Source: a virus
Taxonomy: Duplodnaviria; Caudoviricetes
IMG/VR virus record: IMGVR_UViG_3300020034_000020
Span: 1-53,070 of that record
Strand: one strand, 5' to 3'
Length of the DNA stretch: 53,070 bases
In this document: positions 1,515-40,831 of the stretch, one piece after another
Numbering within the stretch: position 1 is the stretch's first letter
Layout of the letters: each line of letters opens with the position of its first letter
Made by a program: the position numbers and the translations under genes
Notes under the pieces: model-generated
The model's database searches: none
What the model saw: only the letters and a program-made list of their open reading frames with translations
What the model was told of the DNA's origin: nothing

Positions 1515-2327
1515 ATGGCGCTGAACGTTAATTTGCAGGCCCTATCCGTTCCGTTTGGAACGGAATTTCCGGGGACGGTCCAGGATTTCCTGGATTTGAT
1601 CGCCCAGTACATGGAGATCACGGGGCTGGAGGACTTCAACGGTGTCAACTATGGAAGCGTGGAGCCAGAGCCCGAGGACCGAGACAAAGCGTGGTTTAAG
1701 ACCGATGGGAGCGGGACCCCTTTAGGGTGGTATACGTGGAATGGGACGGCCTGGGTGGTTCTTCCGGCGAAAGCCACGGTGGGCACGATTGCCGAGCGGG
1801 ACCTCATTACCGCGCCCCAAGACGGGCAAATGTTTCAGGTCATCGGCACCGGCCTTTACGTGTGGAGCGAAAGTGAATCAGCCTGGGACCCGAGTTTCCC
1901 GGCCTCGATTGCGCCCCAGGCCTATGATCGGAGCTTCTTTTTCGACTCCTATCAGCAGCTAGCCGTCATCAGTGGCTCGGTCGCTGCTTGGACGGCCATC
2001 GACCTGACGGACTTTATCACGGCCGCGGGTCTCACGACGGTCAAGGGCGCCTATCTCTCAGTCGAGACGGCCTTCCCAGACCAGGGCTTTGGGGGACCAG
2101 CAAACTTTAACGTCACCTTGCGCGTGAGCCAAGACAACACCGTTTCGACGTCGTCCAACTCGCTCCTCAAGGCGGTTGCCCAAGGAACTCGCGACGACTC
2201 GCGGACGAGCGCCGCTGCGCAGAATTCGGGCGTCGTGCCACTGCCGACGAATAATGTCTACTATTGCTCTTCCTCCACGGCCTCGGGGGCGAGCGGAACG
2301 CTGTGGTTGGCAGGATTTGTATACTGA
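1515..2327 (+). CDS. Virion tail/fibre-associated protein
   Basis: ATG 1515 follows the palindromes. NYGSVEPEPEDRDKAWF and WYTWNGTAW are fibre-type motifs; position in the tail module. Confidence 0.65.
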   Translation: MALNVNLQALSVPFGTEFPGTVQDFLDLIAQYMEITGLEDFNGVNYGSVEPEPEDRDKAWFKTDGSGTPLGWYTWNGTAWVVLPAKATVGTIAERDLITAPQDGQMFQVIGTGLYVWSESESAWDPSFPASIAPQAYDRSFFFDSYQQLAVISGSVAAWTAIDLTDFITAAGLTTVKGAYLSVETAFPDQGFGGPANFNVTLRVSQDNTVSTSSNSLLKAVAQGTRDDSRTSAAAQNSGVVPLPTNNVYYCSSSTASGASGTLWLAGFVY

Positions 2328-2944
2328 TGCTTCCTTCCTTCCATGTCGTCGATGAGTTTTGCGAGCGGATAAACGACGTTCGCCAGTCCGCGCTGGACTC
2401 GGGCTTTGGTACTTGGGCGCCGAATAAAGGACTCGTCGGAAGTTCAGTTTATCAAGGAATGTCTTTTTGGGGTTCGCATGCTTTGATGCTCCACGCCCTG
2501 GCCGGCGCGGTTGGCGGGGCCGTCTTCCCCAACGCGATGTTCTTTCGCAATACGAATAAGGAAACCGAAAAAGCCTATATCCACTCTGACCGCCACAGCG
2601 GAAATCACACGTGCATCGCGTACCTTTCCAAACACGCCGAAAATACCGGCACCGCGTTTTGGCGCCACCGGCACACCGGACTCACGTTCATGCCGCCTTT
2701 CGAAGAGCAAAAGGCGAAGGGTATTTTCGAGGAGCTCAAGGAAGACATGGTGACCGGCGACCCGGACAAATGGGAGCAACTCGATTACGTGAGAGCGGTA
2801 TTCAATCGTGCACTACTGTTTCAGGCCCCTTTATTTCACTCACGTTGGCCTTTGAGTGGGTTTGGTGAGGGCGAACGAGGCGAAGACCGCCTCGTCTGGG
2901 CCGCGCACTACTTTAAAGTAAACTCTCAAGGGGGCCTCTACTAA
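2327..2944 (+). CDS. 2OG-Fe(II) oxygenase-like protein (DUF6445-like)
   Basis: HxD...H triad (IHSD ... LFHSR), YLS..GT.FW, FNRALLF; start coupled to the upstream stop. Confidence 0.7.
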   Translation: MLPSFHVVDEFCERINDVRQSALDSGFGTWAPNKGLVGSSVYQGMSFWGSHALMLHALAGAVGGAVFPNAMFFRNTNKETEKAYIHSDRHSGNHTCIAYLSKHAENTGTAFWRHRHTGLTFMPPFEEQKAKGIFEELKEDMVTGDPDKWEQLDYVRAVFNRALLFQAPLFHSRWPLSGFGEGERGEDRLVWAAHYFKVNSQGGLY

Positions 2945-3327
2945 TGACCGACTTTGATAAATTTCTCGAAGAGGAGCGCCTGACGCCCGAGGCGCTGGAG
3001 CACGCGAAGGCCGTCGTTCATTTCGATAAATGGTTTCCCGCTAGTGAACTCCTCTTAGAAATTAAGCCGTCGCCGATCGAGGGCGTGGGTGTATTCGCCA
3101 AAGTTAATCTGGAGGAGGGGACCAACGTCGGCACGGGCCGAATTCTGGGACACTGGACGGAGCTCGGCCGCTTTATGAATCACGACGCAAACCCCAACTC
3201 CGTCCCGGTCATGACAGAGCCTGGGAAGATGGATTTTCTCACGACTAAATTTATCGGTGTGGGCGAAGAGCTCACTTGTGAATACCGCAACATCAAAGCC
3301 GTTCTCTTGGGAGGGCCACAACCATGA
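2944..3327 (+). CDS. SET-domain protein-lysine methyltransferase
   Basis: SPIEGVGVFA, RFMNHDANPN and GEELTCEY match the canonical SET motifs. Confidence 0.88.
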   Translation: MTDFDKFLEEERLTPEALEHAKAVVHFDKWFPASELLLEIKPSPIEGVGVFAKVNLEEGTNVGTGRILGHWTELGRFMNHDANPNSVPVMTEPGKMDFLTTKFIGVGEELTCEYRNIKAVLLGGPQP

Positions 3328-4115
3328 GCGAAATCTGGGCCGCCGCCGCGGCAGTAGTCGCCGCCGGGGCGTCCGCGTATGGCACTTATCAATCCGGCCA
3401 GAATGCGAAAGCGGCAGCCGGAAAGCAAGCTCCTGGCCTCGATATAGCCCAAGTCACAAAGGACTCCGCCGTGGGCAATATCCAAGCTGAGCCGGACATC
3501 GAGGCCCTCATTCACTCCGCCAATAAGTTTAACGAAAAGGAAAACCTTTCCCTCCTCGAAAAAGCCATTCCTGGATACAGCAAAATCCAGGGCAATCTCT
3601 CCACCTTGGCGCAAAACGCTTCAGCCGACCCCTACGCGTTACCCCAGGGCGTTGCCGATAATCTCACCCGTCTCGCGGCGGAGCGCGGAATTTCTACCGG
3701 CGTGCGCGGGCAAGCCCAAGACTTCTCTCTTCTCCGTGACTTCGGCGTAAACGAGTTGGCCTACGGTCAGCAGAATATTGCCAATACCCAGTCCATCTTA
3801 GGCACGCTCGCGGGCCTGGGAAAAGTGAGCCCCCTTTCGCCCCTTTCGTTTTACTCGACTCCCGGGCAAGCCCTCGGGGCTAGTGCTACGAACATGAGTG
3901 CCAATCAGGCCGGGATCAACGCGCAGAATGCTGCGAGTCAGTACGCAACGGATAGCAGTTGGGCCGGGATATCGAAACTTGCGGGAGCGGCAGCGACCTA
4001 CGGGCAAAACTACAACGCCAACCAACAGACCCAGCAGCAGGCGTTAAACAATAGCTTCAGCCTCTCTAGCGCTAATCAGCCGTCCTTTAATTCCTCGATG
4101 TTCACGGGACCTTAA
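3324..4115 (+). CDS. Internal virion (ejection/pilot) protein 1
   Basis: Ala/Gly-rich hydrophobic N-terminus, Q/N/A-rich body, first of three genes of increasing size. Confidence 0.72.
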   Translation: MSEIWAAAAAVVAAGASAYGTYQSGQNAKAAAGKQAPGLDIAQVTKDSAVGNIQAEPDIEALIHSANKFNEKENLSLLEKAIPGYSKIQGNLSTLAQNASADPYALPQGVADNLTRLAAERGISTGVRGQAQDFSLLRDFGVNELAYGQQNIANTQSILGTLAGLGKVSPLSPLSFYSTPGQALGASATNMSANQAGINAQNAASQYATDSSWAGISKLAGAAATYGQNYNANQQTQQQALNNSFSLSSANQPSFNSSMFTGP

Positions 4116-4121
4116 AACGCC

Positions 4122-5279
4122 ATGGCCGAAGCACAGTTTACTCCCTATCTTCCTCCTGGCGGCATTGTCGACGCCGCTTTCTCCGGGGCGAGTCAAATGC
4201 AGTCCTTGATGGCGCATGGTCAGCAAATGCGCGAGAGCGCCGAGCAAGCCCAACGCGCAAAGGAGATTTACGAAGTGGGCCGCCCCGTGATGGAGGCGAA
4301 GGCGCAGGCGGATTTAGCAGTCGCACAGGGCACACTCTACAACGCGCGCCAAGTACAACAGTTGCGTGCGCAGTTCGGGCAAGCCTCAAAAGACGCCGGA
4401 GCCGAATACCAGAAGGCCATGCAGCTCCCGACCTACGAACAGCAGGCCAATGCGCTTTCAGATGTCGCGCAGAAGTATTCCTATTTCGAACTTTTCCCTG
4501 AAGGTAAGGCGTTCATGGATACAATCCAAAACAAGGGACTTCAGCAGACCCATTACGGGATTTTAGATACCCAGAATCGCGCCGCCCTCGCCCGGGAACA
4601 ACAGCGCTTCGAGGACGAGACAGCCCTCACGATTACCAAGGGTGACGAAGCCCGCAAGACCAACGCCGCTTACGGCAAGGGTGAGAGCAAAAACGAGAAG
4701 GACATGCGTTTAGTTCAATCCCTCCGCGACCAGGGACGCACCGATGACGCCAACGCTTTAGTTAATGGGTTGAAGGGCGGAAGAGGTGGAAAGCCCAGTG
4801 CCGACATCCAGCTCGTGGACCGCATTGCCGAGGAGACTCGTAACCCAAATGGGGACCCCGAGGTTCTTGCGCTACTCAAGGCCCGATTGCGCAAAAGTGC
4901 TCAGTGGGCGCCCCACCTGGCAGAGTTCGAGGCGAATCAAAATGAGGTCGAAAAGGCGACGGCTGAAGGGAATATCCCTCGGGCTGATGCCTTCGAAGCC
5001 CGCAACCGAGCCCTCGCTTTCAAGGCCGAACTTCCCGACACGTATCCCACGCGCGACAAGCCCGAAGAGAAAAAAACCACCATACTCGAAGATGTGCTTG
5101 GCGGCGTGAAGAAAATCAAAGCGGCGTTTAGCTCTGACCCGATTCCCGCGCCGAGTCCTCCAGCCGCGCCCGCGAACACGAAAACCGTGAAGATCGAAGG
5201 CAAAGACTATCCCGTTTACACGGACGCCAAGGGCAACCGCGCCTATCACAAAGACGGGAAGTATTACCCGATTCCCTGA
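4122..5279 (+). CDS. Internal virion (ejection) protein 2
   Basis: Helical, Q/A/E/K-rich; position between ejection proteins 1 and 3. Confidence 0.65.
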   Translation: MAEAQFTPYLPPGGIVDAAFSGASQMQSLMAHGQQMRESAEQAQRAKEIYEVGRPVMEAKAQADLAVAQGTLYNARQVQQLRAQFGQASKDAGAEYQKAMQLPTYEQQANALSDVAQKYSYFELFPEGKAFMDTIQNKGLQQTHYGILDTQNRAALAREQQRFEDETALTITKGDEARKTNAAYGKGESKNEKDMRLVQSLRDQGRTDDANALVNGLKGGRGGKPSADIQLVDRIAEETRNPNGDPEVLALLKARLRKSAQWAPHLAEFEANQNEVEKATAEGNIPRADAFEARNRALAFKAELPDTYPTRDKPEEKKTTILEDVLGGVKKIKAAFSSDPIPAPSPPAAPANTKTVKIEGKDYPVYTDAKGNRAYHKDGKYYPIP

Positions 5280-8200
5280 TGCCTTTCGACGCCTCAACCG
5301 CCACGTTGGAGGCCGAGCCTCAGGTGGCAGGCTTCGATCCTTCGACCGCAAAACCAGATACGTCCCAGGCTCAGGCCTTCGACCCTAAGACGGCCGCGCC
5401 GCTTAAAGAGGACGTTCCGGATACGGTTATCCGTTCCGCTCCATCGGAGGACGACCCGCTTAACCCGATGGGGGCGGGGCTGCGCGCAATTCGTAAAGCG
5501 CTTTCACCCCTTATCGGCAAAACCGAAGAAGAGCAATTGGTCGCGGGGGCCGAAAGACAGCGTCTCGAAAAACAGTTTCCACAAATCGCGCGTCACGCCG
5601 AGGAGACCGGCGGAAGCGAAATTGAGAAGAAGGGTTTTCTCGGCGGCGTGATGACCAATAAGAGCCCGTGGGCTTTGGCGGTGAACGATGGCGAGGCGGT
5701 CCGCGAAAAAGGAAACCCACTCGCCGAGGTACTCCTTGCGCCAAAAGAAAAAGATGACCCGACGTCGCTTAAGATCGCGAAGGCGCTCTACACCCCCATT
5801 GCGCATACGCTCAACGCGCTTTCTTCGCCGGCAGGCCTGGGCACGGCTGCGATTGGTGCGGGTGCCGAGGCGATCGCGGGCGCCAAATCAGGCCTCGCGG
5901 CCGTCGCTCCGGATTTTATTGGCGCGACTAAGTTGGGCGGTGAATCGGCCCCACTCCTTAAACAGGTTGAGGGCGCGGTTGCTGGGGTTTTCGCCTCGGA
6001 CATGGCGAGCGGGCTGGCGAGCAGTTTGCCGGGCGCCTATGCCAAATGGACCAACCCGGACGTTGACGCCCAGGAAAAAATCCAGGCCGGAGTGGAAATC
6101 ACCCTAAACGCAGCGATGGCCGGACTCGCGGGGGTTGGAGCCTATCGAGGATTAAAGCCCGCTGACGTGGCGGGAATGCGACCCACCGAGGCCGTGAAAG
6201 CGCTCGCTGAAACCTCGGGTAAAACCGTCGAGGAGGTTGCGACGGATGCGCATAAAAACTTTGAGGAGCTCATCGGCCCGAAACAGCCCGAGGAAAAGCA
6301 ATCGGAGTTCAATTTCGACCCCGGCACGGCCCTGCCGGATACGTCGTCGCCGGACGTCATGGCGCCGCCATCTTTCAAGTACGCCATTTGGCCCAAGGAA
6401 TATGGTGTAGCCCGCAGAGTCGACGTGACGCGCTACACTCCGGGTGAACAGCGTATTTCTGAGTCTCGTCTCCTAGAGGACTGGCAGAAGGAGCATCCCG
6501 ATTTGCCTATCCCTCACGAAGACCATCCGGAGGGCAATTTCACAGACGAGCAAGTCCGTGGTTTCGAACCGCGCGAAAAGGAAATCCTCGCCGAACAAGA
6601 CGCCGAATTTACTCCCGTTGGGCTAGGCGCCGCAACGCGCGAGGAGATGACGCCCAAGCCAAGTGTTACCGGCATTAAGAATGCCGACATTGACGCCGAC
6701 CGCGTGAGCCGGGGTCTACCCCCCTTGATGGACACGGCCCGCCGAGGCTGGGGTAAGGTCTGGGAGCAGGCCATGCAACGGATCGACGATTTCGCGAGCC
6801 GGGGCGAAGACGCCGCCAATGAGATTATTGCAAGCCAACTCGACAAGCCTTCGAATATTTCGGACGTCGAGCAGGCGATTCTCCTTCATCGACGGATCGA
6901 CCTAAAAAACCAATACGAGAAGGTCGCCGCGCGGCTGATCGAGGGACACGAAATTGGCAGCGAGGTAACTCTTGCCTCGGACCGTTTGCGAATCGCTCAA
7001 CTCGAAGACCAGCTCCAAGACCTCGAACAGGCCAACAAGGTTGGCGGTGCGGAGTCAGGCCGTGGACTCGCTGCCCGAAAGATGATGGCGCGGGAAGATT
7101 TTTCGCTCGTGAATATGCGGCTGCGAAGGCGTGCCAATAAAGGCGGGGCGCCTCTGACTGAGGCGGAGGGCGCGGAGGTTGAGGCGGCCCACAAGAAAAT
7201 CGTCAAGGCCCAGGAGGAACTCGACCTCCACGCCAAAGGCGGAACGGACACCGAGAGCGACGCGGCGGCAGACGAGGCCGTCGATCAAATTAAGAAGGAC
7301 GTGGGAAGTGAACCCGCCGAGAAAGCGAAGGATTTCGACCTCGATAAAGAGCGCGACCGGGCAATCGACAATATCAGAAAGCGAGTCGAGGACGACGCAT
7401 CGCCCGAGGACCTCACGGCCTTCATTCGCAAGCTCGCGGAGAATTTTGTCCGCCGTGGCGTCAATGAACGTAGTGCTTTAGTGGATGCAGTCCACGGCGT
7501 GATTAAAGATATCATTCCAGAGATGACGCCGCGCCAAGTCATGGATGCGATTTCTGGTTACGGCGATTTCAAGCCTCTCGACCAAGACGCGGTGAAGGTT
7601 CAGCTTCGCGACCTCAAGGGCCAAATGCAACAGGTCGCCAAGTTGGAGGACATGCAGAAGGGTCAAGCGCCGTCGAAAACCGGCGTGGAACGTCGCACCC
7701 CGAGCGACGAAGAGCGCCGCCTCATTAAGGAAGTAAACGAGATGAAGCGCAAAGGCGGCTTCAACGTCACGGACCCAGCGAAGCAATTAAAGAGCGCCCT
7801 GGACGGGATCAAAACTCGGCTCACAAATCAGATTGCGGACCTGACCCACCAAATCGAAACGCGCACGCGTATCGTTAAAACAAAAACGGCGGTGGCGCTC
7901 GATGCGGCGGCCGAAGCGCTCACAAAGCAACGCGACGCCCTAAAGGAGCAGTTCGATCAGATTTTCCAAAAGCCGGAGCTGACAGACGCGCAACGACTCG
8001 CCCTGGCCGAGAAAACGGCGGACCGTCAAATCACGGAGCTCGAAAGGCAGCTCCGAAACCGCGAGGTGTTTCCATCCGCGAAAACGCCGGAACTGGAAAG
8101 TGCGGCCCTCGAAGCGAAACGTGCCCGCATCGAAGCACTGAAAGAGGAACGAGAGAATATCCGCGATAGCATCCAGCCTGGGCGTCTCAACGAAGGGCGG

Positions 8201-9760
8201 CTCGGGGCATTGAAGTCGCGCCTGACAAATCGCATCGCCGAACTCCAGGAGCGTCTTGCTAATTCCGATTTCGGACCGCGCCCAAAACGCACGCCAATTG
8301 AAATGGACGCCGAAGCGGAACGGCTCCAAGCGGCGGCGACTCGCGCGAAACAGGAATTCGAAACAGCGCTCCTTAAAGACCGCTTAGCGAATCGTCCGAT
8401 GCTGCAAAAGATGAAGGATACCTTCGTCAAATGGCAGCGCGGTTTCCTTCTCTCTGGGCCAATCACGCTCTTTAAACTCACGGCCGCCGCCGGGGTCCGG
8501 ATGGCTTCGAGTGCGGCAGAGGAAGGGGTTGGCGGGGTGATTTCCAAGGCACTCCCGTCAGTGGCTGAACAGGCACCGCGCGAAGGCGGCCTCAGCCTGA
8601 AGGCCGAAGCGAAAGCTATTTCCTCAGCCCTCACCCAGGGCATGCGAGACGCGGCGCAAACGCTCAAAACCGGGAGGAGCGACCTCGATGTGAATTATGG
8701 GAAAGGCAAAGACGGCGCCGTTCGGGAAAGCGATGTTTTGCCGCGCTCGATGATCGACTTTTTTGGTGCTCTCCATGGCGCCCTCAAAGCCCCGGTGAAG
8801 CGCGCGGAATTTGAGCGTTCACTACAAAAGCGCATCGAGAGCTATCTAAAGAATAACGCCGATCTCACCGACCCGGCGGTCCAGGTAAAGGCCATGCTGG
8901 AGACCTTTAAGCAGGAGGCTTATAAAGACGCCTCTCGCTCGATTTTCCTCCAAGACAATGTCCTCGTTGACATGGTCAATAGCTTCATTGGGCGCGGCGA
9001 ACAACCGCTTAAAGCCACCGGCAAACCGAGCCCCGGAGGGACGGTGGCGGCAGGTGTAGCGCGCGGGCTGTTCCCGATTGTCCGCGTGCCGCTGAATATC
9101 GTTGCGGAGACCGTCCAGTATGCGACGGGGCTTTATACTGGCTCGGGGCGGCTTGGCCTGGCGTTCCGCCGCGGGATCGAAAACCTCTCTCCGGAACAAG
9201 CTGACTTGATAATGCGGGACCTAAAGAAGGGCATTATAGGAACTACCGCTTTGGTTCTTGGATACGCCTATGCCGACCAGGTGGGCGGCTATTATACAGG
9301 CGAGAAACCAAAGCTCACCGCTGCGAAATTCGGCACCATTAAATTTCTCGGCTACAATATTCCGAGTTTCCTTCTTCACAGTCCTCTTTTGGAAGCCGCC
9401 CAAATCGGTGCGACCATTCGCCACGTTCTCGATAAGAAGATTCGCGGAGCGGATCAAAGTCTGGGCTCTGCCGTCTGGATGTCTGCGCTCGGTCTCGCGG
9501 ACGAAACGCCCTTTGGACACAGTGCTTCGACGGTTGCACGGCTCCTCGACCCACGGGAGACCTCGAAGGCTGGGGGTGAAATCGCGAAGTCAACCCTCGT
9601 CCCTCAACTCGTTTCAAACATCGCCGAAGGGCTAGACCGCGACGCCAAAGGTGTAATTCCGCGAAAAACCGAGGGGCCGGTGACGGCCATCGAATCCGGT
9701 ATTCCCGGGCTCCGCGAAACCCTTCCCGTCGACCAGCGCCGCGCGAACCGCCGCCAATAA
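5279..9760 (+). CDS. Large internal virion (ejection) protein 3, 1493 aa
   Basis: Size, coiled coils, hydrophobic C-terminal segments, last gene of the structural module. Confidence 0.7.
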   Translation: MPFDASTATLEAEPQVAGFDPSTAKPDTSQAQAFDPKTAAPLKEDVPDTVIRSAPSEDDPLNPMGAGLRAIRKALSPLIGKTEEEQLVAGAERQRLEKQFPQIARHAEETGGSEIEKKGFLGGVMTNKSPWALAVNDGEAVREKGNPLAEVLLAPKEKDDPTSLKIAKALYTPIAHTLNALSSPAGLGTAAIGAGAEAIAGAKSGLAAVAPDFIGATKLGGESAPLLKQVEGAVAGVFASDMASGLASSLPGAYAKWTNPDVDAQEKIQAGVEITLNAAMAGLAGVGAYRGLKPADVAGMRPTEAVKALAETSGKTVEEVATDAHKNFEELIGPKQPEEKQSEFNFDPGTALPDTSSPDVMAPPSFKYAIWPKEYGVARRVDVTRYTPGEQRISESRLLEDWQKEHPDLPIPHEDHPEGNFTDEQVRGFEPREKEILAEQDAEFTPVGLGAATREEMTPKPSVTGIKNADIDADRVSRGLPPLMDTARRGWGKVWEQAMQRIDDFASRGEDAANEIIASQLDKPSNISDVEQAILLHRRIDLKNQYEKVAARLIEGHEIGSEVTLASDRLRIAQLEDQLQDLEQANKVGGAESGRGLAARKMMAREDFSLVNMRLRRRANKGGAPLTEAEGAEVEAAHKKIVKAQEELDLHAKGGTDTESDAAADEAVDQIKKDVGSEPAEKAKDFDLDKERDRAIDNIRKRVEDDASPEDLTAFIRKLAENFVRRGVNERSALVDAVHGVIKDIIPEMTPRQVMDAISGYGDFKPLDQDAVKVQLRDLKGQMQQVAKLEDMQKGQAPSKTGVERRTPSDEERRLIKEVNEMKRKGGFNVTDPAKQLKSALDGIKTRLTNQIADLTHQIETRTRIVKTKTAVALDAAAEALTKQRDALKEQFDQIFQKPELTDAQRLALAEKTADRQITELERQLRNREVFPSAKTPELESAALEAKRARIEALKEERENIRDSIQPGRLNEGRLGALKSRLTNRIAELQERLANSDFGPRPKRTPIEMDAEAERLQAAATRAKQEFETALLKDRLANRPMLQKMKDTFVKWQRGFLLSGPITLFKLTAAAGVRMASSAAEEGVGGVISKALPSVAEQAPREGGLSLKAEAKAISSALTQGMRDAAQTLKTGRSDLDVNYGKGKDGAVRESDVLPRSMIDFFGALHGALKAPVKRAEFERSLQKRIESYLKNNADLTDPAVQVKAMLETFKQEAYKDASRSIFLQDNVLVDMVNSFIGRGEQPLKATGKPSPGGTVAAGVARGLFPIVRVPLNIVAETVQYATGLYTGSGRLGLAFRRGIENLSPEQADLIMRDLKKGIIGTTALVLGYAYADQVGGYYTGEKPKLTAAKFGTIKFLGYNIPSFLLHSPLLEAAQIGATIRHVLDKKIRGADQSLGSAVWMSALGLADETPFGHSASTVARLLDPRETSKAGGEIAKSTLVPQLVSNIAEGLDRDAKGVIPRKTEGPVTAIESGIPGLRETLPVDQRRANRRQ

Positions 9761-12704: not shown

Positions 12705-13324
12705 TAGAAGCGGACCTCGCGTTTACGTTCTGGGGCGGCGTGGCCGTTTGCCGGAAGCGACTGCTCCGCCTTATTCAGCCAATTGAGGAAAAACTTCCGC
12801 GTCATCTGACGGCGGTTGTTTTGGCACCAAAGTGCTGCTTTCTCTCGTTCCCTGTCTACGTCGACCGATTTAAACAGCGGGTTGCTTTTAATATCAGCCA
12901 GCCATTCTTCGTTCGTCTGGATTGGTTTCTTAACCGGCTCAATCAAAGGAGTCCTCGTAGCTATGCTTGAGCTATCCTTAAGCTTAGCGTGAGCTATGCT
13001 TGAATTATTCACACGGGCAAGGCCTCCGACTTTGCCGCCCGCCCGCTTGGCACGCGCAGCCTCTTCTTGCTCGGTTGGGTAACCCAAGACGCGGATGTCT
13101 TCAGCGGTGGCCAGAAGTAGCCGCCCGGCGGACGGAAGGCACTCCTTGACCACGCCGAGCATTCCCCAGGCCTCGGACGACCATGAGGCCGCGCCCTTGA
13201 TGACGCCGCCGTTCTCCTGGTCTGCGCACCAAAGAAGGAGATTAAGCCAGGTGCCGCGCCCGGTCGCATTGGTCGCGATAAACGCGGGCTCGCCTGTGAG
13301 TTTCGGGTCCAGGGTGATTTTCAT
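12704..13324 (-). CDS. Replication initiator (lambda O-like)
   Basis: Directly upstream of dnaB, internal iterons, C-terminal FFLNWLNKA; ATG 13324 coupled to the upstream stop. Confidence 0.72.
   Translation of the reverse strand: MKITLDPKLTGEPAFIATNATGRGTWLNLLLWCADQENGGVIKGAASWSSEAWGMLGVVKECLPSAGRLLLATAEDIRVLGYPTEQEEAARAKRAGGKVGGLARVNNSSIAHAKLKDSSSIATRTPLIEPVKKPIQTNEEWLADIKSNPLFKSVDVDREREKAALWCQNNRRQMTRKFFLNWLNKAEQSLPANGHAAPERKREVRF
12959..13002. repeat. Four tandem 11-bp iterons, probable replication origin
   Basis: AGCTATGCTTG / AGCTATCCTTA / AGCTTAGCGTG / AGCTATGCTTG inside the initiator gene. Confidence 0.75.
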
Positions 13325-14196
13325 AATGCCTTTCGTGTTTTCCATTCCGGCAGCGATACGGGCGTCCCGCTCTCGCTCGAACCGGGCCAGGTGTTCAGGT
13401 CGTAGCACTCCTTTAAAAGCTTCAGGTCGCGGAGGACCTCGGTTGCGCCGATATCCAGCGACTCTAAATCGGGGTCGCGGCGTGCGCAGAGGTAGGGCGG
13501 TTTTGTCTCCACCACGGCGAAAGCGAACTGGACGAAGGCGGCGGGAATACCGAGGACCTTGGACACTACGAGGCGATAAAAGGCCGCCTGGCGGTAATAG
13601 TTGTATTTCTCGTATTGATAATCAAAGGACTCCAGGGACTCGATGGTCTTCACGTCGACGATAAAGGGGGCCGCCTCGGCCGTGCCGTCAAACCAGTCGA
13701 CGCGCGACTGAATCCCATAGCTCGCCATTTTGTGGCGAAAGGTAACCTCGGGATTTCCCGCTTTGAAGAGATCCGCCACGACAGGCTTTGCGCGGACCGA
13801 CTCCACCATTTTGGTAGCCTGGTCCCATTCGTTTTCATCGATCTGTTCGCGACCAGCGGCGGCGAGGTCGAAGTCGGCCCACCACTTCATTTGCGCCTTA
13901 GACTTAGGGGAAGGGCTTTCCGCCTCCAACTGCCGACTGGTCGGACGCGCGGGTGCGTAATTCGGGATCTTCACGTAGCGCTGACCAACGACTGTCTCAC
14001 CTTCCAGCGAGTAGGTATGGAAGAACCGCCCGAAGCGGAACGCGGGGGTATCGGCCCGCTCCGGGAGTTCCTTCGTTATATATCGCAGCTTATAGCGAAT
14101 CGGAAAGGGCGTGAGATCCTCCAAGCGATGCGAGCCGACGCAATCAGTTGCTCGATACTCGCCGAACGACTCACTCAGCAGTTTGCCGTAATTCAT
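13321..14196 (-). CDS. PD-(D/E)XK exonuclease (exonuclease VIII/RecE-like)
   Basis: TPAFRFGRFFH, SRVDW, IVDVKT, YYRQAAFY; lies next to recT. Confidence 0.88.
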   Translation of the reverse strand: MNYGKLLSESFGEYRATDCVGSHRLEDLTPFPIRYKLRYITKELPERADTPAFRFGRFFHTYSLEGETVVGQRYVKIPNYAPARPTSRQLEAESPSPKSKAQMKWWADFDLAAAGREQIDENEWDQATKMVESVRAKPVVADLFKAGNPEVTFRHKMASYGIQSRVDWFDGTAEAAPFIVDVKTIESLESFDYQYEKYNYYRQAAFYRLVVSKVLGIPAAFVQFAFAVVETKPPYLCARRDPDLESLDIGATEVLRDLKLLKECYDLNTWPGSSESGTPVSLPEWKTRKAL

Positions 14197-14392
14197 GGGG
14201 TAGCGCGTGAATGGTTGAACAGTAGTTGCATGTTTTGCTGTTAGGCAGCGGAGCGCCGCAGGAGTCGCATTTCATCGCGCGAAGCTCGCGGGGTTTGGGT
14301 GCGGGCGCCTTGCTCGCCGCGAGATTGGCGGCGTTTTGGCCGTAGGCGCTCGCGGCTGCCCCGGCCACTGCTGCGGCTACTGCGCACCACAT
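14171..14392 (-). CDS. Small Zn-ribbon protein with an ejection-protein-like N-terminus
   Basis: CDSCGAPL..CNYC; N-terminus resembles that of 3324..4115. Confidence 0.7.
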   Translation of the reverse strand: MWCAVAAAVAGAAASAYGQNAANLAASKAPAPKPRELRAMKCDSCGAPLPNSKTCNYCSTIHALPHELRQTAE

Positions 14393-14396
14393 AAAG

Positions 14397-15074
14397 CTAT
14401 TCCTCTTTCGGGGCGTCGATGTCGTCGAGAGATTGGGTCACATTGCGCTCTGGCGGCCGTTCACGGGCCTCCTCGGTAGTTACAAGCCCGCGCATCGTCT
14501 CCGGGACCGCGTCCCGGTAGGCGAAGGTTCGAGCCCGCGCGAGGAGCATGCGATCGGGGTGCGTAACCCACGGAGTGGGCTGACCCTCTTTTCCGCGTTT
14601 TTGCCAGAGCCCAGCCTTCTTGGCGTCGCCCACCGTGAAGGTGCGGACAATCGGCTTCGCGCGGTCCTTGCGCTTAATCGTAACCCGATAACCCCAGGCG
14701 TCCGTTCCCTCAACCCCCACGGTTTCGTCCGCGTAGTCTTCGATTAGCCCGCTTGCGTTGGCGATACCGCCGACGGCGTCGCCCCAAACGGTAGGACGCC
14801 CCTGAATGACACAGATATTTTGCAGCGCAGCCATGGGCGGCAGGCCCAACTCAGCCCCGTATTGAATGGCAACGAGGATCGCCTGTTTAGTTTTGAAGGC
14901 CGCCGGAGCCAGGCCGGAGTCGAGGACAGCCCCGGCGAAAATAAACATTTCCTCCAGGGAATTGAAGGTGATGCCCCGGCTGCCCACTTTCATTAAACTG
15001 GATTTACTGGGACCTCCGGCGATTGGCGCAGTTGGCGGCGGAGTCGCCTGGATGTCGATTGCGTGCTCGCTCAT
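14397..15074 (-). CDS. recT: RecT/Redbeta-like ssDNA annealing protein
   Basis: GAELGLPPMAALQNICVIQGRPTVWGD, AKKAGLW, PWVTHPDRML.ARA. Confidence 0.88.
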   Translation of the reverse strand: MSEHAIDIQATPPPTAPIAGGPSKSSLMKVGSRGITFNSLEEMFIFAGAVLDSGLAPAAFKTKQAILVAIQYGAELGLPPMAALQNICVIQGRPTVWGDAVGGIANASGLIEDYADETVGVEGTDAWGYRVTIKRKDRAKPIVRTFTVGDAKKAGLWQKRGKEGQPTPWVTHPDRMLLARARTFAYRDAVPETMRGLVTTEEARERPPERNVTQSLDDIDAPKEE

Positions 15075-15427
15075 GCGTGAGTCCTCTCTTTGGCGCCAAC
15101 GAGGCGCTTGCGGGTGACGGGCTTAACAGGTTCCTCTTTGGCCGGAACCTCGCCCATGAAGTCAAAAAACGCGGCTGGCTCGGGCTCGCCCTTGTCCAGG
15201 GGCAGGAATGGGAAGTGCGGCGGGATCTCGTAATCAATCCACGCGGGCTCCATTTCAATGGTTCCCTGGCCGGTGTGGACGAAGTGGGTTTCCTTGTACC
15301 CGGAGTAGCATTCCCGAATCGTCGTGCCGGGAAAGCGTTCGAGCGCCTTTTGCATGGCGTCACTGGCGTCGAAGCCTTTGACCTCCACGCGCTCTCTAGA
15401 CGAAAGGAGCATTCTATAGGTCAACAT
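15071..15427 (-). CDS. Hypothetical protein
   Basis: Operon context; ATG 15427. Confidence 0.6.
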   Translation of the reverse strand: MLTYRMLLSSRERVEVKGFDASDAMQKALERFPGTTIRECYSGYKETHFVHTGQGTIEMEPAWIDYEIPPHFPFLPLDKGEPEPAAFFDFMGEVPAKEEPVKPVTRKRLVGAKERTHA

Positions 15428-15656
15428 AGCGCCTCCCGTGGTTGATAATCGCGGGGAGGGCCTCAGAAACGCCCGCGGCGCGGCGCGCAACGCGTTCGTC
15501 AATCTCTTTGGTGCAAGCGCGGCGCGGCGGGGCGCCTCGCGTGGTGTGGCTCATTTCGTTTAGGTCGCTAATGGGTTCGTCGCAGAGCCAGCAAATAGGG
15601 GCCTCGACACCGGCCAAAAAGGCGGCGTGTTCCCCGGGGCAAATAGGTTTTCTCAT
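15414..15656 (-). CDS. Hypothetical Cys-containing protein
   Basis: ATGA-coupled to the xis-like gene; CxxC present. Confidence 0.5.
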   Translation of the reverse strand: MRKPICPGEHAAFLAGVEAPICWLCDEPISDLNEMSHTTRGAPPRRACTKEIDERVARRAAGVSEALPAIINHGRRYVDL

Positions 15657-15883
15657 GAAATGTAAGTTCGAAGTTGATCGCGCGGAATACGCAGGCCGAT
15701 GCGTCGGATCTTTCCTTCGCGGACTTCGCGTTGAATGGTTCGCCGGGATTTCCCGGAGATTTTCGCGAACTCGGTGATAGTGAGGTTAGGCCTCCGGGCT
15801 TCGTGAGCCATTTCCTGGAGGCGAAGTAAGGTGTCTACCTTAGCCTCTAGAGAGGCCAAACGGGCTAACGCCTCGTCACTCAT
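15653..15883 (-). CDS. Excisionase-like HTH protein
   Basis: LTITEFAKISGKSRRTIQREVREGKI; near the integrase. Confidence 0.78.
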   Translation of the reverse strand: MSDEALARLASLEAKVDTLLRLQEMAHEARRPNLTITEFAKISGKSRRTIQREVREGKIRRIGLRIPRDQLRTYIS

Positions 15884-15889
15884 AGGGGG

Positions 15890-16114
15890 TTACCCCTTTA
15901 GGAGGTGTTTATAGTGTTTTAGGATAATCCTCCGCATCACCTGACCGGGGGTTATATAATCAAGGGCCGCTTCCGCAGAAATGATGTCAATCACTTGTTG
16001 CGTAAGTGCGGTTGAGACAGTGTGTAACATCTCGTCTCTGGGTATCGCTTTTCGTTTATGGCTCCGAATAATCGTGGAGCCGGCTGCTTCTGGGGCATCG
16101 AGCATTGGTTTCAT
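15890..16114 (-). CDS. Ribbon-helix-helix-like DNA-binding protein
   Basis: TVSTAL strand followed by two helices (QQVIDIISAEA, TPGQVMRRII); first gene of the operon. Confidence 0.55.
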   Translation of the reverse strand: MKPMLDAPEAAGSTIIRSHKRKAIPRDEMLHTVSTALTQQVIDIISAEAALDYITPGQVMRRIILKHYKHLLKG

Positions 16115-16256
16115 TAAAACTCCCTTCGCTTGCGTTCCCGCTGCCTTTTTAAAAGGCGCGTAATGTTTTATAGGTGAACAATCTGCCCTATATGGCAAAG
16201 TGAGGTCAAAAACTTATTTCTCGTATGTTTCCTATTTGAAACATATGACAGTGAAT

Positions 16257-16271
16257 AACACCCTATCCCCT
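16257..16271. repeat. 15-bp element AACACCCTATCCCCT, copy 1
   Basis: Identical copy at 26811-26825; both lie upstream of leftward operons. Confidence 0.8.
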
Positions 16272-16393
16272 TGGGAGCCAATATGACCATTCCCGCTGTC
16301 TGTTTAACACGCCCGCTGAAAATACTTTCAGAGGAGCTTTTTTCGCCCATCGGCTTTGCGTCGGTTTTTGCCGGACCCCCCTCGAGTCACCCC

Positions 16394-16593
16394 TTGTGCC
16401 GCCAAAGCCTGGCACGGAGCGGCACATGGAACTGGTTTACCAGGGAAGGGTGGGCGCTCCTAGAGTCCATTCTTTTCCCTGCTACAGAGGTAAATCCCTC
16501 TGTAGCTTTGTGCCAAAAAGTGCTAAAAAAGGACAGAAATGAGCACTAAACCGGCACAGGATCTTGGAGGCAGTGGCACGGACATGGCACAGA
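16394..16593. other. Candidate attP: GGCAC(A/G) arm-type repeats around a 10-bp inverted repeat
   Basis: GGCAC(A/G) at 16411, 16421, 16553, 16575, 16586; inverted TTGTGCC at 16394 and 16508; GCTACAGAGG/CCTCTGTAGC at 16481-16506. Confidence 0.55.
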
Positions 16594-17801
16594 GCGAAAG
16601 CAAGGCGACCATCGCACTTCGAAAAAAACTCCCTCGCGGAATAAGGATCGGGACCTGGGGGGGCACCGCGCACCAAGCAAAGCCTTACTTCGTCCGTTAT
16701 GGCCCCCAGCGGACCGTCCAATCCTTCGAGGTCGAGTCGACCCGCAATAAGTTCGCCGAGGACCTGACGCTCCAGGCGAAACAGTTAGGCTCACCCTCCC
16801 TTGGAGTGAACCATACCGAGATTAAGGAATGGTTGCTTATTAAAGCCCAGACGGGCGCGACGGCGGCCGAGCTCTTGGAGGCATGGCAGAAGCATAAGAG
16901 CCGGATGAACCTGACTCTGACGGTCTCCGAGGCGGTCGGGAAGTATCTCGCCCTCCGGCGAAACGAGGACATTGCGGAAAAGTCCACCACCTACCGGCAA
17001 ATGAAACGCCACCTTGTGGATTTCCTCGTGGCGACCCACGGCGAGCGGCTACTCATCGACGTCACCGCAGAAGACTTGCGGACGCTCCTCACTACGGTGA
17101 TGGACCGGGACGGCGAAAAACCGGCCGCCGCCGTCACCAAAAAGAGCTACCGAAAGAACTGGATGACGTTCTTCAATCGAGCCTGTGCCGAAAAATGGCT
17201 CGAAGTTAATCCCTGTGCCGAAGTTGTGCCCCCTAAGGTACACGCCAAGGAGAAGGAGCTCTTCTCGATCGAGAAGGTGTTCCACTTCCTCCAGGCCAAT
17301 ATTAACGAGCCGGTCTTGCCCCGCGTGGCCCTGGAAATGTGGGGCTTTATGCGGGCCTCCAGTGCCGCCCGAATCCTCGAGGAGCATGTCAACTTTGAGG
17401 AAAAGGGCCTGAAAATGCCCGGCAAGCAGCATAAGGGCGGCAAGTGGAAATTTCGTCAGGGGCATGCCGAGGTGCTTTGGGATTGGCTTGCCTTGGCAAC
17501 CGAGGAAACTTGGGCTCTCGACGAAAAGATGTACGCCGTTCGCAAAGCTCAGGCCTTTATCCGCGCGGGCTTTAAGCTCAAAAAACGGGCGTTCCACAAC
17601 ATCCTACGCCACTCCTGCATTAGCTATCACCTCGCAGCGCTCAAAGAAATGTCTCGTACCAGCTACCTGGCCCAACACTCCAGCCTAACCATGACTGAGG
17701 AATACGAGGGGGTTGCCACCGAAAAGGACGGCAAGCTCTGGGCAAAACTAACTCCGAAGGCCGTTTCAAACGGCTCGTTTGAACAGTTCATCACCTCATG
17801 A
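16539..17801 (+). CDS. int: Tyrosine recombinase (integrase)
   Basis: Catalytic R (MRASS), HxxxR (HNILRHS), H (AQHSS) and Y (EEYEG); WLEVNP. The true start may be ATG 16584. Confidence 0.9.
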   Translation: MSTKPAQDLGGSGTDMAQSESKATIALRKKLPRGIRIGTWGGTAHQAKPYFVRYGPQRTVQSFEVESTRNKFAEDLTLQAKQLGSPSLGVNHTEIKEWLLIKAQTGATAAELLEAWQKHKSRMNLTLTVSEAVGKYLALRRNEDIAEKSTTYRQMKRHLVDFLVATHGERLLIDVTAEDLRTLLTTVMDRDGEKPAAAVTKKSYRKNWMTFFNRACAEKWLEVNPCAEVVPPKVHAKEKELFSIEKVFHFLQANINEPVLPRVALEMWGFMRASSAARILEEHVNFEEKGLKMPGKQHKGGKWKFRQGHAEVLWDWLALATEETWALDEKMYAVRKAQAFIRAGFKLKKRAFHNILRHSCISYHLAALKEMSRTSYLAQHSSLTMTEEYEGVATEKDGKLWAKLTPKAVSNGSFEQFITS

Positions 17802-36393: not shown

Positions 36394-36873
36394 ATGAATC
36401 TCGTCTCGACATATCGCCATGGGTTTATGCGGCGAGGGGCAATTCACCCTCTCGTAATAGTGTGGAATGGCATGCGCAACCGCTGCAAAAATCCGAACAC
36501 GATCAATTATGCCAACTACGGCGGGAGAGGAATTATCGTCTGCGAGAGATGGAGCGACGTTGCGAATTTTATCGAGGACGTAGGGCCGACCTATCGCCCC
36601 AGCCTGACCCTCGACCGAATTGATAATGATGGCCCTTACTCTCCCGAGAATTGCCGTTGGGCTACGCGTCGCGAACAATGCGAAAACTCCAGGAGGGCAC
36701 GGCTGATGGAATTTCGCGGAGAGAAGCATTGCGTCGCGGAGTGGGCGCGTCGTCTCGCGATGCCCCGTTATGCAATTAACGACCGGATTCACAGGCTCGG
36801 ATGGACTGATGAAGAAGCGCTTTCAACCCCCGTAAAACCACGTGCACCTATTAAAATCCCTAGAAGGAATTGA
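36394..36873 (+). CDS. HNH-type homing endonuclease
   Basis: YGGRGI.VCERW...[20 protein letters not shown]. Confidence 0.85.
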
Positions 36874-37939
36874 CCTGGGCGCACGGGGCGCTTGGCCGCC
36901 CGCGACCTATTTAGTCGAAGACATGGCCGGAGCTACTTACCTCCAGGTCGGGCATCGCGGCATGACTCAGATGACCTATTTGGACGGCAACCCGCGCCCG
37001 TTCGACGAAAAGGAAGACTGGAACGGCAAAAAGATCCTCATCATTCGCCCGGGTGGATTCGGCGATCTGCTTTTTTGCACACCCTCCATTCACGAGATCA
37101 AGCGCCGCTGGCCCTTAAGCGAAATTCACGTCTGCGTATATTCAATGTTTCAAGACATCCTCTTCGCTAACCCGGAGGTGGATAAAATCGTTTCGTACCC
37201 CATAGCCCTGGCCGACGCGGAGGACTATCACGCCTGGGTTTTCCTAGAAAACGTCATCGAGGGTAACCCCGAGGCCGAGCGTATCCATGCAGTGGATATC
37301 GTGGCCAAGCGGATTGGGCTCTCCGAGGTGGCCGATAAAGAGATGCGCTACGCCTTGACCGAAGAGGAACGGGCTTGGGCGCTCGAGCGCTACCCGCGTA
37401 CGCAAAAAGGGGCACTATTTAGGCCCCGCATCGCCATCCAAGTAGAGGCGAGCGGCAAGGCGCGCACTTATCCAGGCAACTTGATGACCGAAGTGATTAT
37501 CCGCCTCGCCCAGAAAGACTGGGAGGTCTTCCTCTTAGGTTCGCCTTTCAAGGTCAAAGCCAAGTCCACGCCGCTCGTTCGAAATCTGATGATTGAGAAC
37601 CTCTCCTTTCGGCAATCGGTCGCCGCGATGACGACCTGTAGCCTCGTCCTCGGGCCGGACTCGGTTATGATCCATATTGCCGGAGCGATTAACATGGGTG
37701 CCCTCGGGCTCTACGGCTCCTTCCCCTGGAATTTGCGCACGGCCTACGCCCCGAGCGTCCAGGCAATCCAGGGCCACGGGGGCTGTGATTTAGCCCCCTG
37801 CTTTTATCACGGTAGCCAACAGGCGCCGCACTTCCCTTTTAATGGCCCCTGCAACAAGAGCCAGCGCTGTGAGCCTCTGGCCAATATCACCCCCGAAAGG
37901 ATCATCGCAAAGTTAGAGGCGATGCTTGGAAGACTATGA
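36842..37939 (+). CDS. GT9 (heptosyltransferase-like) glycosyltransferase
   Basis: [43 protein letters not shown]. Confidence 0.88.
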
Positions 37940-40217: not shown

Positions 40218-40831
40218 CGCCCGAACCTTGGATGATGGAGCGAGTATTCCTCCGGACGCACCGCGACGATGCCCTCTTTGAAAAGTGGACTCGCGATTTG
40301 CCCAAGCGACTCGACACGACCCCCTTTCACTCGGGGCCGCACTCAATTCGCCAAATGCGCGGTGCTCTCCACTTAGTGGGGCGAGACAACGGTTTTTTTA
40401 ACGTCCTAGAGACGGGCTTTTGCCTGGGCCACAGTGCGCGAATTTTCCTTGGGCTAGGGGTGGATACCGTTACCTCAATCGACAACTCCCAGCGGCAGCA
40501 AACCAAGGCGGCGGCGGCTATCCTGCAGTCGACCCATAAAGATGCTTTCGAATTTATTTACGGCGATGCGATCAAGGACCCGGAGCCCATTTTCCTTCAT
40601 TTGAAGGGGCGGCGCTTCGACCTCATGTTTGTCGACGGGAACCACAACCTGGACGGGGTCGTGGCCGACATCGCCCTCGGGCTAAAACTCAAGGTGATAC
40701 ATTTTCTCTTTGACGACTTCTATCCCCACTGGGGCCCCGGGGTTTTGCCCGCCATCGATGAGGCTAAACTCGTCCCCCTGGCCTCCTTTGGAACCATGAT
40801 GCTCTGCGCCACCCCGGAACTCTATTACTGA
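40214..40831 (+). CDS. Class I SAM methyltransferase (Methyltransf_24-like)
   Basis: VLETGFCLGHS, SID, FDLMFVDGNH, FDDF. Confidence 0.85.
   Translation: MTPEPWMMERVFLRTHRDDALFEKWTRDLPKRLDTTPFHSGPHSIRQMRGALHLVGRDNGFFNVLETGFCLGHSARIFLGLGVDTVTSIDNSQRQQTKAAAAILQSTHKDAFEFIYGDAIKDPEPIFLHLKGRRFDLMFVDGNHNLDGVVADIALGLKLKVIHFLFDDFYPHWGPGVLPAIDEAKLVPLASFGTMMLCATPELYY

Follow-up and report, generated by a model that had tools for sequence, protein, structure and literature searches.

Introduction

Morons are accessory genes that interrupt an otherwise conserved gene order among related phages. The capsid-targeting leader of the T4 type is a short N-terminal sequence, which suffices to have a protein packaged and is removed by the prohead protease. 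In the Autographiviridae, the internal virion protein B of T7 (gp14) is the first-ejected outer-membrane pore protein; as described in a part of PMC8954989, gp14-like proteins are ~180-240 aa long with several predicted membrane helices, and residues 1-78 of gp14 are located within the gp15 dome in the virion, while the protein is membrane-bound after ejection. A part of a second source (PMC10883804) describes P22 SieA as an inner-membrane protein that can block ejection proteins, and cites along with it HK97 gp15, a membrane protein that blocks DNA entry via ejection/tape-measure proteins. Our literature search has found nothing on a glycine zipper in phage ejection proteins, and nothing related on ejection-protein decoys in superinfection.

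Here, we have analysed one stretch of DNA of 53,070 nucleotides (IMG/VR virus record IMGVR_UViG_3300020034_000020; hereafter, the window), which appears to come from a lineage of temperate short-tailed soil phage; relatives of the phage are found in Verrucomicrobia assemblies. Between recT and an exonuclease gene, the window carries a small ORF of 73 aa (14171..14392, minus strand, ATG start, stop included), composed of a leader, a basic linker and a zinc ribbon. We read it, at a probability of about one half, as a recently acquired accessory gene that is translated with recT-exo and encodes a probably membrane-associated zinc-ribbon protein.

A recent insertion at the 3' end of recT

The neighbours of the small ORF are well recognised: recT, shortened by the insertion described below, is located at 14397..15074 (minus strand; PF03837; phrog_561, E 1.6e-33), and the PD-(D/E)XK exonuclease (exo) at 13321..14196 (minus strand; DUF3799, PDDEXK_1; phrog_412, E 8.1e-47). 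The RecT of the window is 72-73% identical to the RecT of two related genomes, G001 and G002.

The comparison of this site with three relatives has revealed a lineage-specific insertion of 208 bp (14196..14403, minus strand; position uncertain by 1 nt) at the 3' end of recT. In the relatives L001 and L006, recT directly overlaps exo, with no insert between them, while in a contig of run X3 position 14195 is followed directly by 14404, exactly 208 nt being skipped, with flanks that differ from the window at 3/115 and 14/254 positions (~95% identical). The insert is therefore missing in 3/3 relatives, and it must be recent, because a relative that is ~95% identical in the flanks has none.

The insert contains a new recT stop, part of a Shine-Dalgarno site and residues 1-65 of the 73-aa ORF. 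By direct reading of the sequence (span 14397..14409, minus strand), the new stop is a TAG at 14397..14399, which ends recT two codons past the junction, RecT losing 7 residues; the Shine-Dalgarno-like AGAGG, in the same span and on the same strand, crosses the left junction and is located 9 nt upstream of the ATG of the ORF, and the spacer between the TAG and the ATG is 4 nt. The former recT tail and stop (14171..14195, minus strand), which overlap the start of exo by 26 nt, now form the last 7 codons and the stop of the small ORF. The RecT proteins of L001 and L006 end with the same tail motif and with the same 26-nt overlap with exo, and the joint in the X3 contig is consistent with this arrangement; the frame of the small ORF continues through what used to be the end of recT, and so takes over 7 codons, the stop and the overlap. 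The exo ATG itself straddles the right junction, and the start of exo is conserved in L001 and L006.

The GC content is 63.5% in the insert, 61.5% in recT, 57.8% in exo and 56.7% in the genome. A second copy of the insert has not been found by blastn-short in the window and all the loci gathered, where other matches are of at most 17 nt; a repeated mobile element has been rejected on this single self-match and on the lack of terminal inverted repeats. A promoter-like site has not been found on the minus strand of 13000..16600, with a consensus of the sigma-70 type that may not be that of the host, nor a terminator-like site between recT and exo. The product of the small ORF would probably be made together with RecT and Exo from the early operon. 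Two other gene models have been considered: a shorter one that starts at Met40, the start motif of many ribbons, has been set aside because the protein P0097, described below, conserves 9 residues upstream of Met40, and a +1 frameshift that fuses RecT with the ORF has no support.

Relatives of the small ORF are very rare. A word search among 5.8 billion protein clusters has returned only the ORF itself; PHROGs hold no match for it or for the 263-aa protein that is introduced below, and neither does a tblastn search of 50,697 phage records. The protein-cluster, representative, viral-contig and metagenome searches have shown no homologue adjoining a recT, and a RecT scan of the genome contigs collection has yielded nothing. 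The ORF is seen on 2 contigs of one lineage, with both full-length occurrences in the same sample, possibly the source sample.

The 208 bp that recently entered the last codons of recT are most likely foreign coding DNA. A phage accessory gene would then have been caught at birth with both of its states known: a close relative keeps the empty site, and the window shows the route from 208 bases to an ORF: a stop is placed upstream, a ribosome-binding site is completed, and the tail, stop and coupling are borrowed.

The zinc ribbon and its relatives

The basic linker and the ribbon occupy residues 32-62 (14207..14299, minus strand), with the cysteine codons in 14219..14269. The cysteines follow the pattern C42-x2-C45-x9-C55-x2-C58, i.e. 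two CxxC knuckles with a spacing in the range of zinc ribbons (~9-20 residues), and five Lys/Arg are located between residues 28 and 41. The ribbon gene, of 73 aa and with CxxC-x9-CxxC, lies between recT and the exonuclease, as the earlier note had placed it.

Among 1.84 billion representatives, the sole small homologue of the ribbon is P0097, with 56% identity over residues 31-64 (E 5.8e-5), conservation of all four cysteines and the same coding frame; the Smith-Waterman (SW) score of the pair is 112, against 22.9 +/- 5.0 for shuffles, of which 0/5000 reach that score. The likeness does not extend to the leader: its homology with the N-terminus of P0097 is rejected (SW 15, where shuffles average 17.0), and P0097 opens with a different, moderately hydrophobic 15-mer (Kyte-Doolittle 1.59). 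The reading of the ORF as a modular fusion, made in the earlier note, agrees with this unrelated N-terminus. Searches of viral contigs with P0097 and with the A4 profile have given no match, and a word search with the A4 profile has returned the two known members and nothing further.

AF2, run on a two-row alignment, models short strands over residues 40-62 at pLDDT ~80 (pTM 0.32); the structural neighbours in the Atlas are zinc-ribbon clusters, at TM 0.36-0.50, which serve as a lead only; the Pfam scores for zf-ChsH2 (PF12172; 17.0) and DZR (PF12773; 16.6) are below the gathering cut-offs of 23.2 and 27.3, respectively. In 7/8 metagenome loci (L080-L087), a matching ribbon is located at the N-terminus of an ORF of 126-277 aa with hydrophobic segments downstream, and P0095, a protein of 528 aa, has two such ribbons as well as hydrophobic stretches. 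The complete records of G001 and G002 reach an SW score of at most 41 for the ribbon; no ribbon homologue occurs anywhere in them, and relocation of the small ORF within these relatives is discarded. The ribbon is real coding sequence, and what its very rare family of small proteins conserves is the ribbon itself; ribbons of this type appear to go with membrane proteins.

The conservation of the ribbon bears on the alternative that the insert is a neutral passenger, a scar of illegitimate recombination with a foreign gene fragment, whose ORF is perhaps translated but useless and on its way to being lost. This would suit the absence of the insert from all the relatives, its restriction to a single lineage, the shortening of RecT, and the fact that the ORF has no stop of its own and ends through the recT tail; moreover, GC-rich DNA often contains open frames, so that translation of the leader part need not imply a function. 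However, the same 208 nt bring a recT stop, an ATG 4 nt further on with a Shine-Dalgarno site, a four-cysteine ribbon and an in-frame exit that preserves exo, and the frame is conserved in P0097; we regard a useless scar as rather unlikely.

The leader and the ejection-protein N-terminus

The leader (residues 1-31; 14300..14392, minus strand) consists of Met-Trp, ~15 Ala/Val/Gly residues, a Gln/Asn/Lys/Ala-rich stretch and a terminal Ala-Pro. The protein that it resembles is a candidate gp14-like ejection protein of 263 aa (3324..4115, plus strand) with an N-terminal match to T7 gp14; the corresponding leader spans its residues 1-38 (3324..3437, plus strand), and a second copy of the motif its residues 213-229 (3960..4010, plus strand). 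The 263-aa protein belongs to a family of 93 unnamed proteins, across which the N-terminal Trp and the small-residue helix are conserved. Its N-terminus matches T7 gp14 with a BLASTP E of 0.007 and an SW score of 53, against a background maximum of 47 (two GC-rich Verrucomicrobia MAGs, read as 10,872 six-frame segments with 1,220,847 aa in all). Full-length homology of the family to T7 gp14 is rejected, at an hhalign probability of 0.3%. The recurrence of the T7 gp14 N-terminal motif in this unannotated family of 93, from uncultured soil phages, provides a first functional handle.

The next two ORFs, of 385 aa and 1493 aa (4122..9760, plus strand), are gp15-like and gp16-like by position, and with the 263-aa ORF they match the small-medium-large order of gp14-gp15-gp16 that is given in a part of PMC8954989. 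Searches with the two larger ORFs have returned nothing in Pfam, PHROG, NCBIfam and PDB sequences, and so their assignment is positional only. PDB sequence searches have given no match, and Foldseek of a model of pLDDT 61.5 against the PDB and BFVD has given weak rows only (E 0.65-4). The names on these weak rows are DNA transfer protein or internal virion protein. For the small ORF together with the gp15-like protein, complex prediction scores 0.00 and is uninformative.

The earlier note had claimed that the leader aligns with the start of the ejection protein at 3324, and had cautioned that Ala-rich sequence inflates such similarity; the comparison bears out both the alignment and the caution. 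The 31 residues of the leader align with the 263-aa protein at its N-terminus with a BLOSUM62 SW local score of 62, against 29.4 +/- 5.4 for composition-preserving shuffles (0/2000 reach 62); this is the best non-self match of the leader in the window, the next scoring 41 (1086 six-frame segments), and it exceeds the background maximum. A leader profile has been built from 40 distant N-termini of the 263-aa family, with the 3 closest excluded; before composition correction, the small ORF scores 16.1 bits with it and is surpassed in the window only by the 263-aa protein (23.3), the next segment being at 8.9, and 0/10,872 background segments reach 16.1 bits. The advantage is lost on correction for composition: the HMMER null2 correction lowers the profile score of the small ORF to 3.5 bits, and composition-adjusted BLASTP gives E values of 0.51 and 8.7, which are not significant. 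Of shuffles that keep the Trp in place and permute the hydrophobic block and the polar block each within itself, 258/20000 reach 62. The likeness thus goes beyond chance, although common architecture and composition account for most of it.

The leader scores highest against ejection-protein N-termini of its own clade (62-67); in 16/93 members of the family it reaches the background maximum of 47 or more, and its score climbs with relatedness (rho 0.40, p 6e-5), a trend that seems to fit homology at least as well as convergence, with Ala-richness as a confounder. In the complete records of G001 and G002, the leader scores 62 and 59 against their own ejection genes, the next score being 38; a second leader or another leader fusion has not been found in either record. 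That the leader was copied from the phage's own gene, as the note had it, is not supported by the nucleotides: the two leaders are 57% identical (50/87), and only 5/18 identical residues share a codon; the differing codons exclude a recent copy, and with it a recent intragenomic duplication of the 5' end of the ejection gene. The assignment of the leader to the ejection-protein type has support, T7 gp14 and the 263-aa protein having the motif in common.

AF2 places a helix at residues 6-28 of the small ORF (pLDDT ~55). The Kyte-Doolittle maximum of the leader is 1.67 in a 15-residue window and 1.14 in a 19-residue window, and the latter value makes true membrane insertion doubtful. The most likely source of the likeness is a membrane-active helix of small residues, of one kind in both proteins, which was reached by convergence or inherited from an older donor.

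A stronger interpretation, which we consider unlikely, holds that a true gp14-type leader sits on the zinc ribbon, and that the product would be either cargo, packaged in the internal core near the gp15-like protein and then ejected, or a poison of the nascent membrane channel, which would assemble together with incoming ejection proteins and so act in exclusion. The leader match stands above all background and is best to its own clade; the motif is exactly N-terminal in both the small ORF and the 263-aa protein; T7 gp14 and 5 more gp14 proteins of the Autographiviridae have an N-terminus of this type, and the small ORF aligns with T7 gp14, N-terminus to N-terminus, at a BLASTP E of 0.041. The location of gp14 in the virion and after ejection, and the precedent of SieA, would suit such roles. 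Against them stand the block shuffles and the corrected scores, the absence of nucleotide-level likeness, the scores of the other gp14 N-termini against the small ORF (20-42, in the background range) and the two related genomes with no other leader fusion; the early recombination operon, in which the ORF has no promoter of its own, is also ill-timed for a virion protein, and a gene for exclusion by the prophage would hardly be expected there. The natural leader swap that this implies, in which a gp14-type N-terminus would take the ribbon into the core or ejectosome, or would disturb the assembly of the membrane channel, is about as unlikely. If it were true, the first ~30 gp14-like residues would be a portable address from T7 to Verrucomicrobia phages, and nature would thus offer a simple tag with which proteins could be loaded into short-tailed phage particles, or ejection could be blocked.

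Proposed reading of the small ORF

In the reading that we prefer, that of a recently acquired accessory gene, the protein would have two modules: a Trp-led Ala/Val/Gly helix of marginal hydrophobicity with the basic linker, followed by the four-cysteine ribbon. The helix would tether the protein to the inner membrane or lie within it, or would drive self-association, while the positive linker and the ribbon would be located in the cytoplasm, where the ribbon may bind a partner. The small ORF would then be a non-essential accessory, a moron-like gene.

Zinc ribbons often bind nucleic acid, and the ORF is translationally coupled between recT and exo and has a helix that is only weakly hydrophobic, but that it encodes a soluble recombination accessory, whose ribbon would bind DNA, RecT or Exo and modulate recombination and whose helix would oligomerise instead of anchoring in the membrane, is very improbable, as the relatives recombine without it, ribbons of like sequence sit on membrane-type proteins, and a homologue beside a recT has not appeared in any search run.

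Comparison with known systems

A prohead protease, by which leaders of the T4 type are cleaved, has not been identified within the window. The small bacterial proteins of the PP0621 family (NF041023) have a similar length (~71 aa) and match residues 1-62 of the ORF weakly; the ORF scores 14.4 bits (E 0.033) where the curated cut-off is 45 bits, and is not a member.

With SieA, the small ORF may share the general situation of a small phage protein that sits at the inner membrane of the host of a temperate short-tailed phage. SieA is, however, ~162 aa long, with three predicted TM helices and expression from the prophage, according to the part of the source that describes it, and has no sequence likeness to the small ORF.

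The N-terminus of T7 gp14, with its Cys/Trp-led small hydrophobic run followed by a Gly/Ser-Gln-Asn-Ala and Lys-rich stretch, appears to be alike in type to that of the small ORF. Unlike gp14-like proteins, the small ORF has 73 aa, one predicted helix and a zinc ribbon in place of the helical channel body, and its gene lies on the opposite strand, flanked by recT and exo, whereas the first place in the virion cluster is taken by the gene at 3324. The low-GC membrane proteins of loci L080-L087 have a ribbon that is almost the same in sequence around its first knuckle (identity of 53-68% across 19-32 residues), but in them it stands at the front, ahead of the hydrophobic segments, while the small ORF has the reverse order and ends past its ribbon.

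The resemblance to morons lies in a site that is empty in the three relatives, in small size and in foreign origin. The GC content of the insert is above that of the genome (63.5% vs 56.7%), but near that of the neighbouring recT (61.5%). Unlike morons, the small ORF has no promoter (on the sigma-70-type scan, whose consensus may not be the host's) or terminator of its own, and it is located inside the 3' end of a gene, whose tail and stop it reuses.

A recent short insertion at the 3' end of recT

A small ORF of 73 aa (14171..14392, minus strand) is located in the early operon of the window, between recT (14397..15074, minus strand; PF03837; phrog_561, E 1.6e-33) and the gene of a PD-(D/E)XK exonuclease, exo (13321..14196, minus strand; DUF3799; phrog_412, E 8.1e-47), in an operon that also contains a DnaB-like helicase gene on the same strand (phrog_19). 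The ORF starts 4 nt past the recT stop and overlaps the start of exo by 26 nt. Its product begins with Met-Trp, followed by about 15 Ala/Val/Gly residues and by a Gln/Asn/Ala/Lys stretch up to Ala-Pro; after this leader come a basic linker and the zinc ribbon C42-x2-C45-x9-C55-x2-C58. A further small Cys-rich ORF of the early operon (15414..15656, minus strand, 80 aa), with several CxxC-like pairs, is conserved in the recT-exo locus of a relative (L001).

In two related virus records (G001 and G002), whose RecT is 72-73% identical to that of the window, recT and exo overlap directly by 26 nt with no intervening ORF, and the final residues of the RecT tail coincide with those of the small ORF; in a 369-nt contig from a soil metagenome of another study (X3), position 14195 is joined to position 14404, exactly 208 nt being skipped, and the flanks differ from the window at 3/115 and 14/254 positions. 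Segment 14196..14403 is thus absent in all three relatives, one of which is ~95% identical in the flanks.

Read on the minus strand, the insert supplies a TAG two codons past the left junction, whereby RecT loses 7 residues, and together with flanking bases it completes an AGAGG located 9 nt before the ATG of the small ORF. Codons 1-65 of the small ORF are carried by the insert, which leaves in the old recT frame, so that the old tail, the stop and the exo overlap are reused; the ATG of exo spans the right junction. Terminal inverted repeats are absent from the insert, which occurs once in the window and in none of the other loci analysed. A scan with a sigma-70-type consensus, which may not be that of the host, has revealed no promoter-like site, nor was a terminator-like site of its own found; the complete records of G001 and G002 contain neither a ribbon homologue nor a second leader.

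Similarity of the leader to a candidate ejection protein

Over its first 31 residues, the product of the small ORF aligns with residues 4-37 of the 263-aa candidate ejection protein (3324..4115, plus strand) with a BLOSUM62 score of 62, which bears out the earlier description of a zinc-ribbon ORF with an ejection-protein-like N-terminus. Of the 1086 six-frame segments into which the window was translated, this one gives the leader its best non-self match (next score 41). When both N-terminal pieces are shuffled with their composition kept, the score is 29.4 +/- 5.4, and 0/2000 shuffles reach 62. As an empirical null, we have used 10,872 segments (1,220,847 aa) from two Verrucomicrobia MAGs (691,739 bp, 67% GC), where the top score is 47 and none reaches 50. 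The leader also matches a second motif copy in the 263-aa protein (residues 213-229; 3960..4010, plus strand), with a Smith-Waterman score of 40 and a BLASTP E of 0.51.

Of the 43 N-termini aligned for the family, 40 went into a leader profile, from which P0002, P0005 and the window's own protein were excluded. Without composition correction, the profile assigns 23.3 bits to the 263-aa protein, 16.1 to the small ORF and 8.9 to the next segment of the window; none of the background segments reaches 16.1 (the maximum, 15.9, is the sum of weak matches in a Gly-rich frame), and 1/5000 leader shuffles equals the real score. Significance is lost after correction: composition-adjusted BLASTP gives E 0.51 and 8.7, and the HMMER null2 correction brings the small ORF down to 3.5 bits, a correction under which the true family member, too, falls outside the top ten. 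Block shuffles (Trp fixed, hydrophobic and polar blocks separate) have a higher mean of 43.9 +/- 6.6 and reach 62 in 258/20000 cases. Judged from these alignments, the likeness is real, but is mostly one of a Trp, a small-residue helix and a polar Ala/Gln/Lys stretch.

Origin of the ribbon and the leader

A phmmer search with the small ORF against 1.84 billion representatives has returned five other proteins at E <= 0.001, three of which are repeat or low-complexity proteins. The informative match is P0097 (67 aa, on a 1613-bp contig), with 56% identity in the linker-ribbon part, residues 31-64 (E 5.8e-5; score 112 against shuffles of 22.9 +/- 5.0, 0/5000); the N-termini of the two proteins are unrelated (score 15, shuffle mean 17.0), although P0097, too, starts with a moderately hydrophobic 15-mer. 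P0095 (528 aa) contains hydrophobic stretches and two ribbons, and is matched partly on the ex-recT tail (14171..14195), which resembles the Pro-x-Glu-Leu-Arg sequence located behind a ribbon of P0095; this likeness could be either coincidence or the trace of a microhomology that guided the right junction. In metagenome contigs, a back-translated scan has located the ribbon at eight loci; at seven, all those resolved, an ORF of 126-277 aa begins with the ribbon and continues with hydrophobic segments, and four of these encode the same 267-aa protein. A word-based search of 5.8 billion clusters has returned the small ORF alone, and a two-sequence profile only the small ORF and P0097.

The idea of a transplanted leader is partly supported, in that the product is modular and its leader is of the ejection-protein type; a source in the phage's own gene is not supported. 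There is no nucleotide signal between the two leaders of the window (50/87 aligned bases identical), and 5/18 identical residues have the same codon, one leader using AGC for Ser and the other TCC. A copy of the phage's own gene made at the time of insertion is ruled out, because the insertion is younger than ~5% divergence; by this sequence reasoning, the leader came in with the insert.

Possible roles of the small protein

Beside the established insertion anatomy, coupling signals and conserved ribbon, we give a probability of about 50% to an accessory protein, so called because it is absent from the relatives, which would be co-translated with RecT and Exo. The AF2 model has a low-confidence helix at residues 6-28, and the leader has a Kyte-Doolittle value of 1.67 over 15 residues, only 1.14 over 19; in this reading, the helix would serve membrane association or self-association, and the five Lys/Arg located after it would keep the ribbon in the cytoplasm.

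That the inserted ORF is a neutral passenger is unlikely. Slightly less likely still is a functional mimicry, with the small protein as putative packaged cargo or exclusion factor. In favour of it, the leader has its highest scores with ejection proteins of its own clade (62-67; at least 47 in 16/93 family members; rho 0.40), a closeness confounded by Ala-richness in the same genome; the gp14 N-terminus is located inside gp15 in the virion, according to PMC8954989, and SieA is, in PMC10883804, a precedent for a membrane protein that blocks ejection proteins. However, an early-operon site without a promoter is unsuited both to a virion protein and to an exclusion gene expressed from a prophage. 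A soluble recombination accessory, in which the helix would serve oligomerisation and not membrane anchoring, is improbable.

Genomic setting

The window, a complete virus record of IMG/VR (53,070 bp, 56.7% GC), contains a large terminase (phrog_2), an ORF that is integrase-sized by its length (16539..17801) and a tail spike whose pectate-lyase-like beta-helix (50292..51587, plus strand; PF12708, E 1.9e-10) points to a polysaccharide receptor. Among public runs, soil metagenomes are the only holders of its DNA, and contigs of three Verrucomicrobia MAGs contain distant relatives of the 263-aa protein (33-35% identity). Five auxiliary genes lie between the large terminase and a 691-aa ORF (36842..41403, plus strand). 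Two are GT9 heptosyltransferase-like, one of them as a fusion with GT2, another is weakly GT2-like under the Pfam cut-off, and two encode SAM methyltransferases; the block is a candidate glycan-modification cassette of a temperate phage.

In the virion module, 2264..3327 (plus strand) is occupied by an ORF with DUF6445 and one of 127 aa with a SET domain (PF00856, E 3.8e-8), directly upstream of and overlapping the gp14-like gene. As the DUF6445 gene runs straight into the gp14-like gene at two loci of relatives (L003 and L004), the SET-domain gene could have come in by another lineage-specific insertion.

Comparison with T7 gp14

The family of the 263-aa protein comprises 93 proteins, none named beyond "hypothetical protein", with a conserved N-terminus and the second motif copy near the C-terminus; a small-residue Ser/Ala/Tyr stretch is also seen near the C-terminus of T7 gp14. 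The G001 orthologue (L003, 3863..4906), P0003 and P0004 (318-322 aa) are extended at the C-terminus by a domain of ~60-80 aa with no counterpart in the window's protein. For the 263-aa protein, sequence searches of Pfam, PHROG, NCBIfam and PDB and a tblastn of 50,697 phage records gave no match, nor did a structural search with the all-helical AF2 model (pLDDT 61.5) give a significant one.

After the gene of the 263-aa protein come ORFs of 385 and 1493 aa, the same small-medium-large order as that of the gp14-, gp15- and gp16-like genes in PMC8954989. The N-terminus of the 263-aa protein matches that of T7 gp14 (NC_001604) with a BLASTP E of 0.007, 13/26 identical residues and a Smith-Waterman score of 53 (background maximum 47), and five more Autographiviridae gp14 proteins begin with the same type of segment; profile comparison finds no whole-length homology. 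Because of the gene order and the N-terminal match, in the absence of whole-length homology, we treat the protein as a positional analogue of gp14 with a common N-terminal motif, the homology being not proven. The small ORF also aligns with T7 gp14 N-terminus to N-terminus (E 0.041), but against the six gp14 N-termini it scores 20-42, within background. As an orphan accessory gene, it belongs to a general kind already known; the unusual aspects are the resolved insertion event and the occurrence of a T7-like N-terminal motif in a family of uncultured phages.
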